DNA of 63,859 nucleotides, counting the filler, from Reclinomonas americana ATCC 50394 (Eukaryota): NCBI GenBank assembly GCA_048213135.1. It is 20 parts of 20 records of this genome, joined end to end, with 100 filler letters (N's around TTAATTAATTAA, not from the genome) between each part and the next. Parts side by side here need not be neighbours in the genome. Positions count along the whole stretch, not along the records: positions 6,008 to 11,223 come from AFZH01021125.1; positions 11,324 to 16,683 come from AFZH01021126.1; 18 more parts are not named here. The stretch is one strand, 5' to 3'. A program made the translations under genes and the position numbers. Shown here in pieces: positions 7,051-13,506 of the stretch. The notes below the pieces were generated by a model. It had not been told where the DNA came from, searched no databases, and saw nothing but the letters and a program-made list of their open reading frames with translations. The stretch's first letter is position 1. Every line of letters starts with the position of its first letter.

Positions 7051-10000
7051 CTAGCACGTCAGGGTCACGGTGAACTTGGGCGCCGTGGCCGTAATCGACG
7101 CCCGGCTGGTCACATCGGTGAACGCCTTGATAAAGAAGGTGCCGGTGGCGGCGTTGACGGAGCCCAGGTCCACCGAGCCACTGCCGCTGACCGGTACCGT
7201 GATGGTGCCGGCGATGCGGTTGACATCGGTCAGCGCGGTGACCACCATGAGGAAGGCGGTCGGCGGCATGTTGGTGAAGTTGGCCTTGATGATGCCAGTG
7301 CGAGAGCGGTAGCACGAGGCCGTGGCGGTGATGGTGGGCGGCGGGATCTCGCAAAAGGCGCCCGAGTAACGGTTGACACACTGCGCGAGGGGGAGTGAGA
7401 TGGCGACAGGGAATGAAAACGAGGGACAGCTTACGCACTGTGCATGTGCCGGTCTTGGAGCAGGAGCCGCCGTTCTTGCAGGTGGACGTGACGCACTGCA
7501 CGTCGCACGAGGTGCCAAAGTAGCCGGTGGCGCACTTGTCGCAGTTCGGCGTCTTGGCGTTCGAGCTCGCAAAGCCCTGTGCGGGAGAGCGAGTGCGTGA
7601 GTCGTGCTCTTATTTAACGGATAAGCGTGCTCACGTACAATGGCGCAAGTCGAGCAGGTGGGGCCGGCAAAGTTGACCTTGCAGGCGCAGAATCCGTCAG
7701 TGTCGCACAGAACGGAGCCGGCGGTGGAGCACGTGCACGCGAGGCTGGTGGGCAGAGTGAGCATCGGTGATGAGACGGAAGTGTTTGGAAAAACAACTCA
7801 CCAACGTCCGGCAGAGCAGTACTGTCCAGCGGGGCAAGTCACGCTGCTGCACGAGCCTGCACACAAACACGCCAGTAAAAAAACAAGACGTTTCAACGCT
7901 TGCTTCTCTCTCTCCCCCTCACACCTGCAGCCGCCGTCAGCGTCACAGTGTACCGCTGAATGATGCTGGTGCCAGTGGACGCCGAATACACTCGCAGGTA
8001 GTACAGTCCGCCACTGGAGGTCGGCAGGGCGAACTTGGTCACCGCCTCTGCCGAGCCCGCAGCCGTCGCATTTGCTGTGGTGATCACGGAGCTGCCGTTG
8101 GCACTCAGCAGCTGGAACGCCAGGTCGAACTGATTGCGCGGGTCGTACGAGGTGCCGGCGGAGCAGGAGCCGTCGAAGTTCTGTGAGCCACTCAGGTAGG
8201 GGTTCTGCGCGGCCGGGGCGACGGTGATGTCGAGCACGGAGCCTGCGGTGGTGAACTGCGGTGGAAATAGGAGAGGGTGAGCTGCGGTGTGCGAAAAAAT
8301 GAGCGCGTGTTCGTCGATAAGTTCACCTTGTAAAAGTCAATGTCGCTCGCCGAGTCAATGCTGCGGGGCGGTGGCAGACAGTGAGCTTGAGCAGGCAAGA
8401 ATTGGTGATGCGAAACGTACCTCGCGGCAAATGTAGTCGGCGGGTCAGTGACCAGGAGGGCGCCGAGGTTGCTGGCACTGGCCACCGTGTCGTTGTCCTC
8501 TGCGTTGTGCAGTGAGTAAACAAAGACGTGCTGCAAAGCAGCTGGATCACTCACCGTAGGCGTCGCCGTACTTGATCTGCGCGGCGCTCAAGTCGTCAAA
8601 CTGGGCGCCGTCGAATGCCGTGGTGACGTAGGGCTGCCACAGAGGAAGAGTGAGACACCTACATAATCAAGCTCTGAAAACGGATTTCTGTACCTCCATG
8701 AGCTTGGTCTGCTGCACCGGGCACACGTGGTCCATGCTGCATACGGAGGCTGTCAGTCATAATCGGGCGCAAGTGAGAATCACTCGTCGCACGAACCCCA
8801 AGGCATGCCCGAGCTCGTGCGCTAGCACGTTGCGGAAGCCGCGGTAGTTGTTGTTGATGGCAGACGCTCCCTGGTACCACGTGTCTGTGGCGTCAATGAC
8901 CATCTGTGGAACAAGGAGCAGTGAGGCGCGCTGCATAACCAAGAGCTTCAACAGATGTACGCAACATCGCCGGTGTTGGGGAAGTAGCAGTAGGCCAGCA
9001 CTTTGCCGTTGCCATCCAGCGGCTATTTACAAAAAAAGCAGAGAGTCAACAAAAGGTGCGCAAGAAGACACTGCAGTAGATGCAACACACCCGCGCTGCA
9101 ATGCGGACGTCACCGCGCACGCCCAGCACACCGGGCGAGTTGGGGAAGGAGGCACCGTCGTCGTTCGGCTCGTATGCGAACTTGACGCACGTGCCGGTGG
9201 ACCACGCATCAAAGATCCTGCGCAAGTGTCGGCACCGAGAAGAGAGAAAGTGATGAAATGTAGGAGAACGCAACTGCTGGAACAGCGGCTGCCACTTGTT
9301 GGCACCGTACAGGCCGTCCAGCCACGTGCGCAGCGAGCTGCCGGCAGTGGCGCCGCCGCTGATGGCGTTGAAGATGGGAGTGCCCTCTGTTGGAGGAGGG
9401 AGAAGAGGGTGAGGAAAGGGGAGGAGAGGGGGGAGAGGGGGGAGAGGGGGGAGAGGGGAAGGTGAGGGAGAGGAGGAAGGGGGAGAGGGGGAGAGGGGGA
9501 GAGGGGGGAGGGTGGGAGAGGGTGGAGAGAGGGAGATGCAGCAGCGACCGCGGACTCAAAACCAAAGTGTACAAATGTGGGGCGTTGACCTTGAAGTGGA
9601 AACAACAAGGCATTCTCTGGCGCGTGAAAGGCGACCAAAACAATGAATGCAACCAGAAAATGGGTGGTGACACAGAAGAGGAAACTCGAACGGTGCAAGA
9701 GAAAGGCAATGAAACCAAGCGTCCACCGAGGTGAAAGAATAAACTAAGCAAGCGACCGTACGCTTGCGAGCAGGGAGCGGGGCGGCAGACACGGAAGAGG
9801 AAATACCACAACACATGGCAAACGGCAAATGAGAGAGACTAAGAAACGAAAGAGTCAACAACGGATAGAAAGTGGATTGGGCAAGTAACCATCCGCAGAC
9901 GAGCAGAGACTGGGGTGGGGGACACGGAAAAGGAAATAACAAAACATGGCGAACGGCAACTGAGGGCGACAAAGAAAACAATACGGCTCTGCCAGTATTA

Positions 10001-10970
10001 CAACCGGAGAAATGAGGGAGAGAAATGGAAAGATTGTACGTCCGAGAAGCAGGGAGGGAGAGAGTGAGAGAGAAAGGTGGAGAGAGAGAGAGAGAAAGTG
10101 AGTGCAAGAGAGAGAAAAAAGAAACAGCGGAAAAAGGAATGAGAAACAGGGCAATAAACGGCAATAAAAGTGATTCGTGACGATGCTGCTTGTCGGGCAC
10201 AAAGAGCGAGTGAGTGGGATACGCGCGAAAGAGAAGGACCGAGAGACACGCACACGCTGGGAAGAGAGAATGGTGATGCAAGAGAGAGAGAGAAGAAACA
10301 GCGGAAAACAGCGTGCAATAAAAGCAACAAAAAGTGATTGCGACCATGCAGCTTGACGGGCATGAAGAGCAAGTGAGTGGGATACGCGCGAAAGAGAAGG
10401 ACCGAGAGACACGCACACGTTGGGAAGAGAGAATGGTGATGCAAGAGAGAGAGAGAAAAGAACCAACAGAAAACAGAGTGAGAAACAGGGCAATAAAAAC
10501 AACAAAAAGTGATTGTGATGATGCTGGTTGACGGGCATGAAGAGCAAGTGAGTGGGATATGCACGGAAGAGAAGGACCGAGAGACACGCACACAGAAAAA
10601 AGACAAAACAAAGAGACAATGACGAGCGATGATGCAACATTCGACTGCATCAGTCTCTCTCCTTCCCACTGCTCCCGCCACGCACCCTTCACAAACGAAT
10701 AGGTCAACTTGAGGCAGGTTCCCGCCGGCGCCGACGAGGTCGTCGCAGTCGACGTCCACCGCGCCGAGTTGGCATTGAATTCCGGCGTGAAACCACGATT
10801 GCGACGCTTTGTAGTCGTCGTCGTTGAGCTTTCCGTGTGCAACTTCTCCTTGGCCGCCGTCTCCAGCAGCGCAGCAATGGTGGCCTCCAGGTGCTCATGA
10901 GTCGCCGTCTCCGCCATGAAGGGAATGGGCGCGCCTGCCTTCTGCAGTTGCAGAGACAGCGTGCTGGAGT
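7051..10970 (-). CDS. Matrixin (M10, metzincin) metalloprotease + PPC-like domain + laminin/EGF repeats + C-terminal beta domain; copy 1, first exon lost in gap
   Basis: Spliced FRNVLAHELGHALG|MDHVCPVQQTKLME|PYVTTAFDGAQFDDLSAAQIKYGD contains HExxHxxGxxH and the Met-turn. EDNDTVASASNLG…SIDSASDIDFYK…YYLRVY is PPC-like. CACKVNFAGPTCSTC and CKNGGSC…CVNRYSGAFCE are EGF-type. About 13 introns. Confidence 0.9.
10170..10600. repeat. ~165-175-bp tandem repeat (about 3 copies) inside a matrixin copy 1 intron
   Basis: GAGCRAGTGAGTGGGATA…GAGAAGGACCGAGAGACACGCACAC recurs at about 10204, 10367 and 10542. Confidence 0.85.
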
Positions 10971-11381
10971 CTGTAGGAAGGAAGGGAAGGAAGGAAAGGG
11001 TGAGAAAGCAGGAGGAGGCAAGGGAAGGTGAGGGAGGGGAGTGCAAGGCAAGAGAGGAAACGAGGGGAGGAAGACACTGAGAAGTGGTGGCAAGGGTGCA
11101 AGAGGAAGGGAGGAGAGGTGAGTGAAAGAGAGAGAGGGAAGAGAAGGAAGGGAAAACCGTGCTTGCTTTCTCCGTTCCTTCATCTCTCTCTTTGCTCTCT
11201 CTCTCTCTCTCTCTCTCTCTCTCNNNNNNNNNNNNNNNNNNNNNNNNNNNNNNNNNNNNNNNNNNNNTTAATTAATTAANNNNNNNNNNNNNNNNNNNNN
11301 NNNNNNNNNNNNNNNNNNNNNNNGAGAGAGAGAGAGAGATTTGCGCGCGCACACACAAGTGCTCATGTGACCACTACAAAC

Positions 11382-12464: not shown

Positions 12465-13143
12465 TCACACACACACAACAAAAACACACAGAGGGAGAGG
12501 GACGAGAGAAAGAAGACAGGGAGAAGGGGTAACAGCAAACAGACATAAGAGAAAACACACGCGCCCTCACTCTTTTCATCACCCACTCACCAGGAACAAA
12601 CGAGTAGGTCAGGGTGAGGCACGTGCTGATCGCGTGCGACGACTGCGTCGCGGTCTTGGTCCAGTTGGTGCCGCCTTGATTGTTGTTGTAGGTGAAGTCG
12701 GGAGTGAACTCGCCGCGGACGCGGTTCTCCGCAGTCTTGCGCGCCACTGCAGCCTCCACAATGCGGCTCACCGCGCGACTCAAATCGTCCCACGTCGACT
12801 CGGGCGACATGACCGGGATCGGTGCGTCGAGGGTGCGGAGCTTCGAGGAGAGAGATTCACGCTCGCCTGTATTCGTGGCCAAGAAAATCGTGAAAACCAG
12901 GCGAACGAGACAAGGAAAGCAGAGAGAAAGAGTGAGAATGGACGTGTCTTGACATGGAACCCATAATTTTGTGTCCGAAACACCGTACAGATGACGGCGA
13001 ATGAGAGAGAGAGAGGGACAGAAGGAGCAAGTGTGTGTGTGTGAGAGAGAGTGAGAAGTAGTGTCATGACAAATATACACAAAATTGGAGTCTGAAACAA
13101 ACACAAACAATGAAAGCGAATGAGAGGGATAGAAAGAGCAAAA

Positions 13144-13190
<47 letters not shown>

Positions 13191-13506
13191 AGAGAGAGAG
13201 TGTGCGTGTGAAAGAGACAAAAACAACAATGAAAAGACACTAATTTGAGATAAGACTTGTTTCTTCGCGCACTCACGCACGCACACACGCAGAGCAGCAC
13301 ACACGCGCACACACACTCAGCAATCAACACAAAGAGAGTGACGAAGTGAGAGAGAGAAAAGTGCGTGACATGTTTGAGATTCGTCTCACACACTTTTTTC
13401 TTTTTTTGGTGTCTCTCACTCACTCACCAGTGGAGAACGCGCTGGCGGCAATGGCCAGTGTGGCCAGCACGACGAGTACTGAGAGAAGAACGTTGCGTGT
13501 CATCAT
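11382..13506 (-). CDS. Matrixin (M10) metalloprotease, copy 2; signal peptide + pro-region + catalytic domain, 3' part lost in gap
   Basis: Signal peptide MMTRNVLLSVLVVLATLAIAASAFST, then …CLTLTYSFVP|DGT…WKPLFKQ|IFDAWS…VRGDIRISAR|PIDGNSSILAYCYFPNTGD|MVLD…FRNVLAHELGHALG|VDHVCPVSQTKLME. Intron positions match copy 1. Confidence 0.9.
12140..12305. repeat. 15-bp minisatellite (GAGAAGGAGAAGGG[ACT]) in a matrixin copy 2 intron
   Basis: About 11 tandem units are visible. Confidence 0.9.

Follow-up and report, generated by a model that had tools for sequence, protein, structure and literature searches.

How did a protease of bacterial type come to be encoded, in many small exons, in the genome of a protist? 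The question is raised by a stretch of 63,859 nucleotides from Reclinomonas americana ATCC 50394 (assembly GCA_048213135.1), which is referred to here as the window. Two partial genes, called B and C, are found on the minus strand between positions 7051 and 13506. Both encode matrixin-type (M10) proteases; in B the catalytic domain is followed by a PPC domain, a laminin-type EGF module and an EGF module. By every test applied B and C are members of a Planctomycetota-type M10+PPC subfamily, and they are similar to matrix metalloproteinases (MMPs) without being canonical MMPs. This M10 subfamily is otherwise almost confined to Planctomycetota, chiefly Phycisphaerae. In all likelihood a bacterial M10+PPC gene was transferred to a eukaryote, intronised, given a new tail with EGF modules and duplicated, with B and C as secreted zinc endopeptidases. 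An old transfer from bacterium to eukaryote is well supported, and homology, distribution and a rooted tree uphold the core of an earlier note on this DNA, which had proposed such a transfer and a fusion to EGF modules.

Two genes on two contigs

The window is an artificial join of contigs, because the 12-mer TTAATTAATTAA is present 19 times (shuffled sequences give an expectation of 0), each time inside an identical 100-base block of 44 N, the 12-mer and 44 N. No further N runs occur in the window. It consists of 20 contigs of 1.1-8.6 kb, artificially joined, and features that span any spacer are artefacts of the joining. Since one spacer lies inside 7051-13506, the single gene that the earlier note had read there is a join of two contigs; it is replaced by two partial paralogous genes, one on either side of the spacer. 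Gene B is carried by the contig at 6008-11223 (AFZH01021125.1) and gene C by that at 11324-16683 (AFZH01021126.1), both of them short (5.2 and 5.4 kb). The interval is bounded by the final base of a TAG stop codon (7051) and by the first base of an ATG (13506). The quoted motifs are all present on the minus strand of this interval, as a mixture from the two genes. RWTSTAT, YEPNDDGASF, the PPC part and the EGF part belong to B; the motifs of C are its signal peptide, NWTKTAT and VEQATDDGAAF, onward to the Met-turn.

B and C are old paralogues whose common introns were gained before the duplication. The spliced proteins are 56% identical over 248 aligned positions in a local comparison, and 139 of 234 aligned codon pairs specify the same residue (nonsynonymous divergence, dN, 0.355; synonymous divergence, dS, 0.89). 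Exons 4-7 are equal in length in the two genes (127, 57, 107 and 43 nt). The homologous small introns (introns 3-6) have no sequence similarity, and the match in intron 2 is confined to CT-rich low-complexity stretches. B and C are neither alleles nor halves of one gene, because the first preserved exon of B is homologous to exon 2 of C and has the identical phase. No further copies of B or C were found in the window.

Relationship to bacterial proteins

Database searches were carried out with single exons, and spliced B and C were then compared locally with the retrieved proteins. For the 110-residue PPC exon of B (exon 11), 2114 candidates yielded five proteins at E <= 0.01, each with PF00413. 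The best match is P0001, encoded in a Phycisphaerae metagenome-assembled genome, with 47% identity to the exon (E 7e-14). Spliced B has 41% identity to P0001 over 375 residues of the catalytic and PPC domains (E 7e-76). Against P0001-P0005 as a set, the identities of B are 38-41%, with alignments of 375-407 aa and E-values of 1e-67 to 7e-76; they cover residues 59-429, which takes in both the catalytic and the PPC domain in full. The shorter C shows 41-48% identity over 173-221 aa (E 6e-34 to 5e-40), the closest again being P0001 (48%, 174 aa, E 5e-40). The invariant core columns of the bacterial alignment are kept at 95 of 125 positions in B and at 50 of 65 in C, including HVCP, LMEP, YGD and DGSCSAGT; the HVCP...LMEP signature is common to B and the bacterial family.

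In a prokaryote scan with one genome per species, 314 relatives were confirmed from 352 pattern matches. Taxa and scores against B cover the best 80 of the 314 loci. Among these, 75 have Planctomycetota names, mostly Phycisphaerae, Phycisphaerales or Phycisphaeraceae; the remainder are three Armatimonadota, one Myxococcales and one 'Leptolyngbya sp. PLA1'. B matches all 80 at 149-214 bits. The likeness to Planctomycete proteins, which the earlier note had claimed, is borne out by these counts and by the alignment with P0001. A family member is matched at E <= 1e-20 in 25 of 301 evenly sampled Planctomycetota genomes, and five Phycisphaerae genomes have 1-10 PF00413 matches each, some of them in tandem.

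The tandem arrays of M10+PPC genes in Phycisphaerae contain two or three divergent paralogues within a few kb. The copies nearest to B and C (L035_1 on G002 contig C1, L044_1 on G001 contig C1 and L080_1 on G003 contig C55) adjoin a copy of the main clade.

Relatives outside these bacteria were also sought. A word-index protein search with the 78-aa read-through catalytic fragment of C against longer proteins gave 81 candidates, none significant. The same kind of search with the PPC exon against proteins of similar length gave 27 candidates, and since none was significant, other eukaryotic contigs yielded no relatives of exon size. A scan of JGI metagenomes with the PPC exon gave three relatives among 538 pattern matches. 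The best of these (L110) is an uninterrupted open reading frame (ORF) of bacterial type with 43% identity over 353 aa and a G+C content (GC) of 64%. Neither the protein database nor the JGI scan, both searched at the level of the exon, contained a eukaryote-like relative of the PPC exon. In IMG/VR, profile A1 found two remote matches (25% identity), which give no hint of a viral carrier. Neither the bacterial family nor the exons are represented by a model in NCBIfam. Profile A1 includes the He_PIG repeats of four of the five bacterial members, and the top 150 of the representative-protein search were nearly all giant He_PIG proteins; the only family members among them were P0001, P0023, P0074, P0114, P0116, P0146 and P0149. 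The counts from this exhaustive search (32332, 16576 and 5759) were dropped as family counts, since He_PIG repeats dominate them.

Phylogenetic position and direction of transfer

A quick maximum likelihood tree of 101 rows with midpoint rooting (L045_2 was left out as too short) joined B and C with a Shimodaira-Hasegawa-like approximate likelihood ratio (SH-aLRT) support of 99. The pair fell in a starred group of seven rows with L035_1, L044_1, L080_1, P0005 and P0023, which is nested in a starred Planctomycetota clade of 35 rows. The second tree (IQ-TREE, LG+C20+F+G4, 44 rows by 388 columns) contained 39 rows from the first and five deeper M10+PPC paralogues of the same Phycisphaerae genomes, and was rooted on this deeper 'HSVPC' paralogue subfamily. 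The ingroup, including B+C, was supported at 100/100 and B+C at 100/99. The sister group of B+C comprised the five bacterial rows that had joined it in the first tree (91/78), and the other 32 rows formed a clade at 100/97. The pair B+C is clearly a member of the bacterial family, with bacterial lineages on either side of it; the likeness to bacterial M10 proteases stated in the earlier note holds in the rooted tree.

The donor sublineage is not fixed by this tree, because the approximately unbiased (AU) test keeps the topology with B+C outside the bacterial rows. A clade of all 39 ingroup bacterial rows that excludes B+C is not rejected (p 0.396; difference in log-likelihood 7.8). This topology would also suit a reverse transfer, in which an old, sparsely sampled protist family passed the gene to Planctomycetota, or a more complex history of moves between eukaryotes after one bacterial donation. 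The long stem of B+C (0.67) and the dependence of the root on a bacterial paralogue subfamily point the same way, and Parsons & Fournier (PMC12587646) place protist MMPs of several lineages within bacterial diversity and suggest unsampled protist diversity and transfer between protists. A history of this kind is nevertheless improbable. The bacterial side counts 314 loci, with as many as 10 M10 paralogues in a Phycisphaerae genome, against one eukaryotic lineage found, with no eukaryote-like relative in the two exon-level scans described above. In the Atlas the PPC exon lies nearest to clusters of PPC families, whose rows with a taxon record are 100% Bacteria, and bacteria also supply the outgroup subfamily and every sister row.

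Gene structure

The gene models were read on the minus strand and their frames verified by script (Table 1). Gene B is read for 626 codons to its stop and has 14 exons and 13 introns within the contig. It opens in phase 1, immediately behind a CAG acceptor, which implies one or more further exons past the edge of the contig; the first exon, with the signal peptide, is located off the contig. In gene C an intron opens after the Met-turn, and the contig then ends. All 19 introns (13 in B and 6 in C) are GT-AG with CAG or TAG acceptors, and both spliced frames are open. Most introns are 55-74 nt in length; the exceptions are intron 2 of B (1299 nt) and introns 1 and 2 of C (561 and 492 nt). In B and C alike a phase-2 intron interrupts the Gly codon of HELGHALG/xDH, and the zinc-binding motif is therefore split as the earlier note had described. 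Its figure of about 13 introns is right for gene B alone (13 in the contig, plus at least one upstream). The splice junctions are collinear with the bacterial proteins in the alignment, without insertions or deletions. The GC at third codon positions (GC3) of the B exons is 0.84, against an intron GC of 0.52.

Part of gene B was also recovered from the only public sequencing run that contains the stretch, X1 (DNA, share 0.08), in which a single contig of 393 nt matches 8318-8686 at 99+% identity and covers one whole B intron and parts of two others. A loose end of 25 letters on this contig is presumably a sequencing adaptor. The run consists of short contigs like raw reads, and may belong to the data that underlie the assembly.

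The large introns are rich in repeats. For example, intron 2 of C has a 15-nt unit repeated 11.3 times at 12138-12306, and AC, TG and TC microsatellites occur at 12433-12490, 13147-13188 and 11183-11223. The last of these is the TC run in which the contig of B terminates, and it may explain the break in the assembly at that point.

It is very unlikely that B and C are decaying relics of a transfer, pseudogenes with no working protease. Both copies are incomplete in the assembly and the dN/dS between them is moderate (0.40), as such relics might be; however, the truncations fall at contig ends and are not lesions, and the 626+268 spliced codons are free of stops and frameshifts, with every splice site canonical. 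The zinc ligands, the catalytic Glu and the Met-turn are intact in both genes, B retains the 95 family-invariant positions noted above, and its GC3 is strongly biased. Bacterial contamination or a chimeric misassembly, to which the bacterial best matches and the short contigs might point, is already refuted by the gene structure: coding sequence whose bacterial homologues are uninterrupted ORFs is broken here by 13 and 6 GT-AG introns, at positions common to the paralogues, whose removal restores the frame, exons and introns differ in base composition, and the independent-looking X1 contig spans one of the introns in full. The earlier note was correct on this point.

Table 1. Positions in the window of genes B and C, their exons and the artificial spacers
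Feature	Position	Strand	Content or basis
Gene B, 5'-truncated	7051-10970	-	Matrixin, PPC, laminin-EGF/EGF and C-terminal domain; open spliced frame
B exon 2	10686-10970	-	Cys-free pro-region, then start of catalytic domain (RWTSTAT...LTYSFVK)
B KRRNR basic cluster	10795-10809	-	Candidate proprotein-convertase site; sequence, position of alignment start
B intron 2	9387-10685	-	1299 nt, CT-rich on coding strand; 163-nt tandem repeat x2.7 at 10144-10593
B exon 3	9275-9386	-	EGTPIF...WLDGLYGANKWQPLFQQ
B exon 4	9091-9217	-	127 nt; IFDAWS...YEPNDDGASF...GVRGDVRIAAR
B exon 5	8966-9022	-	57 nt; PLDGNGKVLAYCYFPNTGD; C counterpart PIDGNSSILAYCYFPNT aligns to MMP segment P-DG...LAHAYFP
B exon 6	8797-8903	-	107 nt; MVIDATDTW...RNVLAHELGHALG-; HExxH at 8819-8805
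B exon 7	8694-8736	-	43 nt; -MDHVCPVQQTKLME; third zinc His 8729-8727, Met-turn Met 8699-8697
B exon 8	8555-8633	-	PYVTTAFDGAQFDDLSAAQIKYGDAY; end of catalytic domain
B exons 9-11 and two introns	7925-8499	-	Exons 8499-8421, 8360-8327 and 8255-7925; PPC/collagen-binding-domain-like domain (EDND...SIDSASDIDFYK...QNFDGSCSAGT...)
B exon 12	7802-7856	-	Short Cys-rich linker (GSCSSVTCPAGQYCSAGR-), too short for Pfam
B exon 13	7639-7744	-	Laminin-type EGF, Cys 1-7 of 8 (eighth in exon 14)
B exon 14	7439-7576	-	End of laminin-type EGF and most of EGF-like module
B exon 15	7051-7380	-	End of EGF module (7380-7348), beta-rich C-terminal domain of ~98 aa, TAG stop 7053-7051
Gene C, 3'-truncated paralogue	11382-13506	-	268 codons, 7 exons, 6 introns
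C exon 1	13428-13506	-	ATG and signal peptide (MMTRNVLLSVLVVLATLAIAASAFST-)
C exon 2	12591-12866	-	Cys-free pro-region, then start of catalytic domain (NWTKTAT...LTYSFVP)
C exon 3	11984-12098	-	
C exon 4	11795-11921	-	127 nt, as B exon 4
C exon 5	11664-11720	-	57 nt, as B counterpart
C exon 6	11488-11594	-	107 nt, as B counterpart; HExxH at 11510-11496
C exon 7	11382-11424	-	43 nt, as B counterpart; third His 11417-11415, Met-turn Met 11387-11385
Artificial spacer between B and C	11224-11323	none	44 N + TTAATTAATTAA + 44 N; spacer census
Artificial spacers	1490-1589, 2738-2837, 4570-4669, 5908-6007, 11224-11323, 16684-16783 and 13 more		

Catalytic domain, pro-region and signal peptide

After splicing, both genes have the zinc motif HELGHALG(M/V)DH, which is HExxHxxGxxH with its catalytic Glu, and the Met-turn HVCPV(Q/S)QTKLME(P), with the Met 10 residues past the third His. 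On Peptidase_M10 (PF00413, cut-off 24 bits) the read-through ORF of C scores 24.1 and a fragment of B 18.8, and the bacterial homologues score 32.6-45.5 bits. The scores of the window fragments are marginal because introns cut the domains; the catalytic domain is split over six or seven exons. The signal peptide of C was called by inspection, from a basic n-region, a hydrophobic core and small residues near the end.

The pro-regions of B and C contain no Cys, so there is no PRCGxPD cysteine switch. No hemopexin domain was matched by Pfam in the exons and ORFs scanned, and the tail of B is made of PPC and EGF modules. Both absences had been stated in the earlier note. Its further statement that the HAF.P segment of MMPs is missing calls for a qualification: LAYCYFPNTGD aligns with the MMP segment LAHAYFPG, and the His itself is replaced. 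Homology to the bacterial proteins begins in B at about residue 58-70, and the basic KRRNR cluster is located just at that point. The equivalent position of C has NRVR only. The coincidence suggests that the pro-region of B may be removed there by a convertase.

The HExxHxxGxxH motif and the Met-turn would also be expected in a divergent, vertically inherited canonical MMP of animal or plant type, and when the C fragment was used in a PDB search all 14 rows were MMPs or karilysin, with weak scores (best E 0.21). This reading is already refuted by the common M10+PPC architecture and the gap in scores, since scores against the Planctomycetota family rise to 214-245 bits, with similarity that continues through the PPC domain, a family member (P0003) has only 33 bits (E 2.3e-7) against its best PDB match, stromelysin-3, and both the Cys switch and the hemopexin domain are missing.

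An RGD tripeptide is found in exon 4 of B (GVRGDVRI, 9091-9120 region) and of C (NVRGDIRI, 11795-11825 region). It is conserved from the bacterial family to B and C. The R, G and D are invariant in the five-row alignment; in that of 40 rows only the G is invariant and the R nearly so. The tripeptide is probably structural rather than integrin-binding.

PPC domain and C-terminal modules

Three exons of B encode its PPC domain, and the family is divergent. On PF04151 (cut-off 25.9 bits) the exon 11 ORF scores 14.1, P0001 19.0 and P0005 18.2. By its Atlas features the nearest clusters of the PPC exon are PPC, with a best score of 0.90, and 10 of the 10 best family-bearing hits share family or clan with the top one (PPC).

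Fold was examined with a bacterial proxy, P0114, which is 39% identical to B (40-row alignment; predicted local distance difference test score, pLDDT, 81.7; predicted template modelling score, pTM, 0.74). In this model the protein has an MMP-like catalytic fold and a PPC domain like the collagen-binding domain (CBD) of collagenases. The catalytic domain matches MMP-13, -3 and -1 with Foldseek E of about 1e-7 and target TM of 0.64-0.76 (MMP-13: E 8e-8, TM 0.73), and MMP-2, -9, -20 and -12 with Z of 12.3-13.1, the highest being MMP-2 (Z 13.1). The second domain matches the CBD of ColH with Z 13.4 and a root-mean-square deviation (rmsd) of 1.8 Å over 110 residues, and that of ColG with Z 13.2 and 12.9; the ColH and ColG superpositions together have an rmsd of 1.8-2.0 Å over 108-110 residues. 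The PPC domain of Bacillus anthracis collagenase follows with Z 11.5.

The laminin and EGF modules that had been recognised in the tail are confirmed, with modest scores. Exon 13 alone reaches 21.5 bits on laminin-type EGF (PF00053, cut-off 21; E 2.7e-4; profile positions 1-35 of 49), which is a small margin. Exon 14 matches Notch1 EGF repeats in the PDB (E 1.1e-5, 28.5 bits) and WIF-1 (E 3e-4), and has only 10.3 bits on Pfam EGF_2. We infer a eukaryotic origin for these EGF modules. The C-terminal domain in exon 15 has no Pfam and no Atlas match, and a single-sequence fold gave a pLDDT of 45.6. The Cys-rich tails of bacterial loci L017, L047 and L073 were considered as EGF homologues and rejected as gapped BLAST extensions without a matching Cys pattern.

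Proposed history and function

A bacterial M10+PPC gene would have entered the nuclear genome of a eukaryote long ago, and would there have acquired a signal peptide, a Cys-free pro-region and 14 or more spliceosomal introns. The variable tail of the bacterial protein (He_PIG, dockerin and others) may have been swapped for the laminin-type EGF module, the EGF module and the beta-rich C-terminal domain. Duplication into B and C would have followed the gain of the common introns. Secretion, activation, catalytic activity and substrate can be proposed from the anatomy of the predicted proteins. The signal peptide would route the protein into the secretory pathway, where the pro-region could be cut off, in B possibly at RRNR by a convertase of furin/kexin type. 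The three His of HELGHALGxDH would hold the catalytic zinc, with the Glu as general base and the KLMEP Met-turn beneath the site, and the PPC and EGF modules may anchor the enzyme to an extracellular protein substrate or surface. The part in predation or matrix degradation that the earlier note suggested is speculative.

Several points weigh against this history. The top identity to any bacterial protein is just 41-48%. The direction of transfer is taken mainly from the distribution and from a root on bacterial paralogues, in a tree whose AU test leaves B+C free to fall outside the ingroup bacterial rows. The family may be more widely distributed among eukaryotes, its absence elsewhere having been judged from exon-level searches. 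Both genes are incomplete, each ending at a contig edge, and their splicing and expression are predicted from the DNA. The Pfam scores of the window fragments are marginal (M10 24.1 and 18.8 against 24; PPC 14.1 against 25.9), and the evidence on fold comes from P0114 and not from B itself.

A bolder extension of the transfer would have a protist lineage domesticate an entire matrix-degrading module of Phycisphaerae-like planctomycetes (MMP-like catalytic domain and collagen-binding-type PPC domain), give it a pro-region activated by a convertase, weld it to the laminin-EGF and EGF modules typical of eukaryotic matrices and expand it into a lineage-specific family of secreted proteases for remodelling of its own extracellular coat or for prey digestion. 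This is speculative and, taken whole, rather unlikely. If true, it would be an independent invention of enzymes that combine an MMP with matrix modules, outside animals and plants.

Other features of the window

Three open frames on other parts of the window were noted. An uninterrupted ORF of 374 aa at 44015-45139 (+) matches WD40 repeats very strongly (PF00400, 188 bits; WDR3-type propeller, 236.6 bits), and the lack of introns in it is unusual in a genome whose protease genes have 13. A frame of 1257 aa at 39092-42865 (-), where the GC is 62%, stays open as far as the edge of its contig and has no Pfam match; it could encode a large protein of low complexity or be open merely by chance, given the GC-rich sequence. 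The ORF at 17313-18371 (+), on another contig than B and C, has a sub-threshold match to Longin (regulated-SNARE-like; 23.6 bits, cut-off 26.2), as might be expected of an ordinary trafficking gene of a eukaryote. Searches of the window for Rfam families and tRNAs gave no matches.

Comparison with known systems

Transfers of secreted hydrolases into protists are common, and nothing is overturned by B and C. Their value is that of a well-documented case, in which a multi-domain secreted bacterial protease has become a normal eukaryotic gene with introns, signal peptide, pro-region and a swapped tail, and of a pointer to an uncharacterised bacterial protease family. The Planctomycetota, in particular the Phycisphaerae, are a reservoir of a large unstudied matrixin subfamily with a collagen-binding-like second domain; to our knowledge there has been no biochemical work on it.

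A full-text literature search found no description of a Planctomycetota-type M10+PPC protease in a eukaryote, and one paper that bears on the topic (Parsons & Fournier 2025, PMC12587646). In that paper, MMPs of haptophytes, green algae, pelagophytes and labyrinthulomycetes are nested within bacterial diversity, which is explained by horizontal transfer. A term search of its main text gave no mention of Planctomycetes, Phycisphaerae, PPC or introns. B and C add a concrete case to this reported scatter of bacterial-like MMPs in protists.

The closest known proteins are the uncharacterised secreted M10+PPC proteases of Planctomycetota, e.g., P0001 (at NCBI 'putative Ig domain-containing protein [Phycisphaerae bacterium]'). 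Catalytic and PPC domains are collinear in both groups, and the C-terminal tail after the PPC domain is variable. The common signatures are RW...LTxSF, DDGA, RGD(I/V)RI, LAY.(F/Y)FP..GDMV(I/L)D, HVCP...LMEP, YGD, E.ND and QN.DGSCSAGT. In contrast to the bacterial proteins, B and C have spliceosomal introns, a eukaryotic-style signal peptide (seen in C) and a Cys-free pro-region. Their zinc motif is HELGHALG where the bacterial proteins have HEHGHGLG, and the tail of B is laminin-EGF/EGF where theirs is He_PIG, dockerin or NIDO-like.

Canonical MMPs (M10A; vertebrate MMP-1, -2, -3, -9, -11 and -13) share the zinc motif and the Met-turn with B and C, whose matches to PF00413 are marginal, and the likeness in fold is seen with the bacterial proxy. 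In MMPs the His of the LAHAF segment binds a structural zinc, and a hemopexin-like C-terminal domain is present in most, though not all, of them. B and C differ in having LAYCYFP in place of that segment and in lacking PRCGxPD and hemopexin.

The second domain resembles the CBDs of the clostridial collagenases ColG and ColH, as well as the PPC domain of the B. anthracis enzyme, on which the proxy superposes with an rmsd of 1.8-2.1 Å over 101-110 residues at 16-17% identity. The E.ND...D.D.FY motifs at the start of the PPC domain resemble the calcium-site motifs of collagenase CBD/PPC domains. In collagenases this domain follows an M9 catalytic module, whereas here it follows an M10 module.

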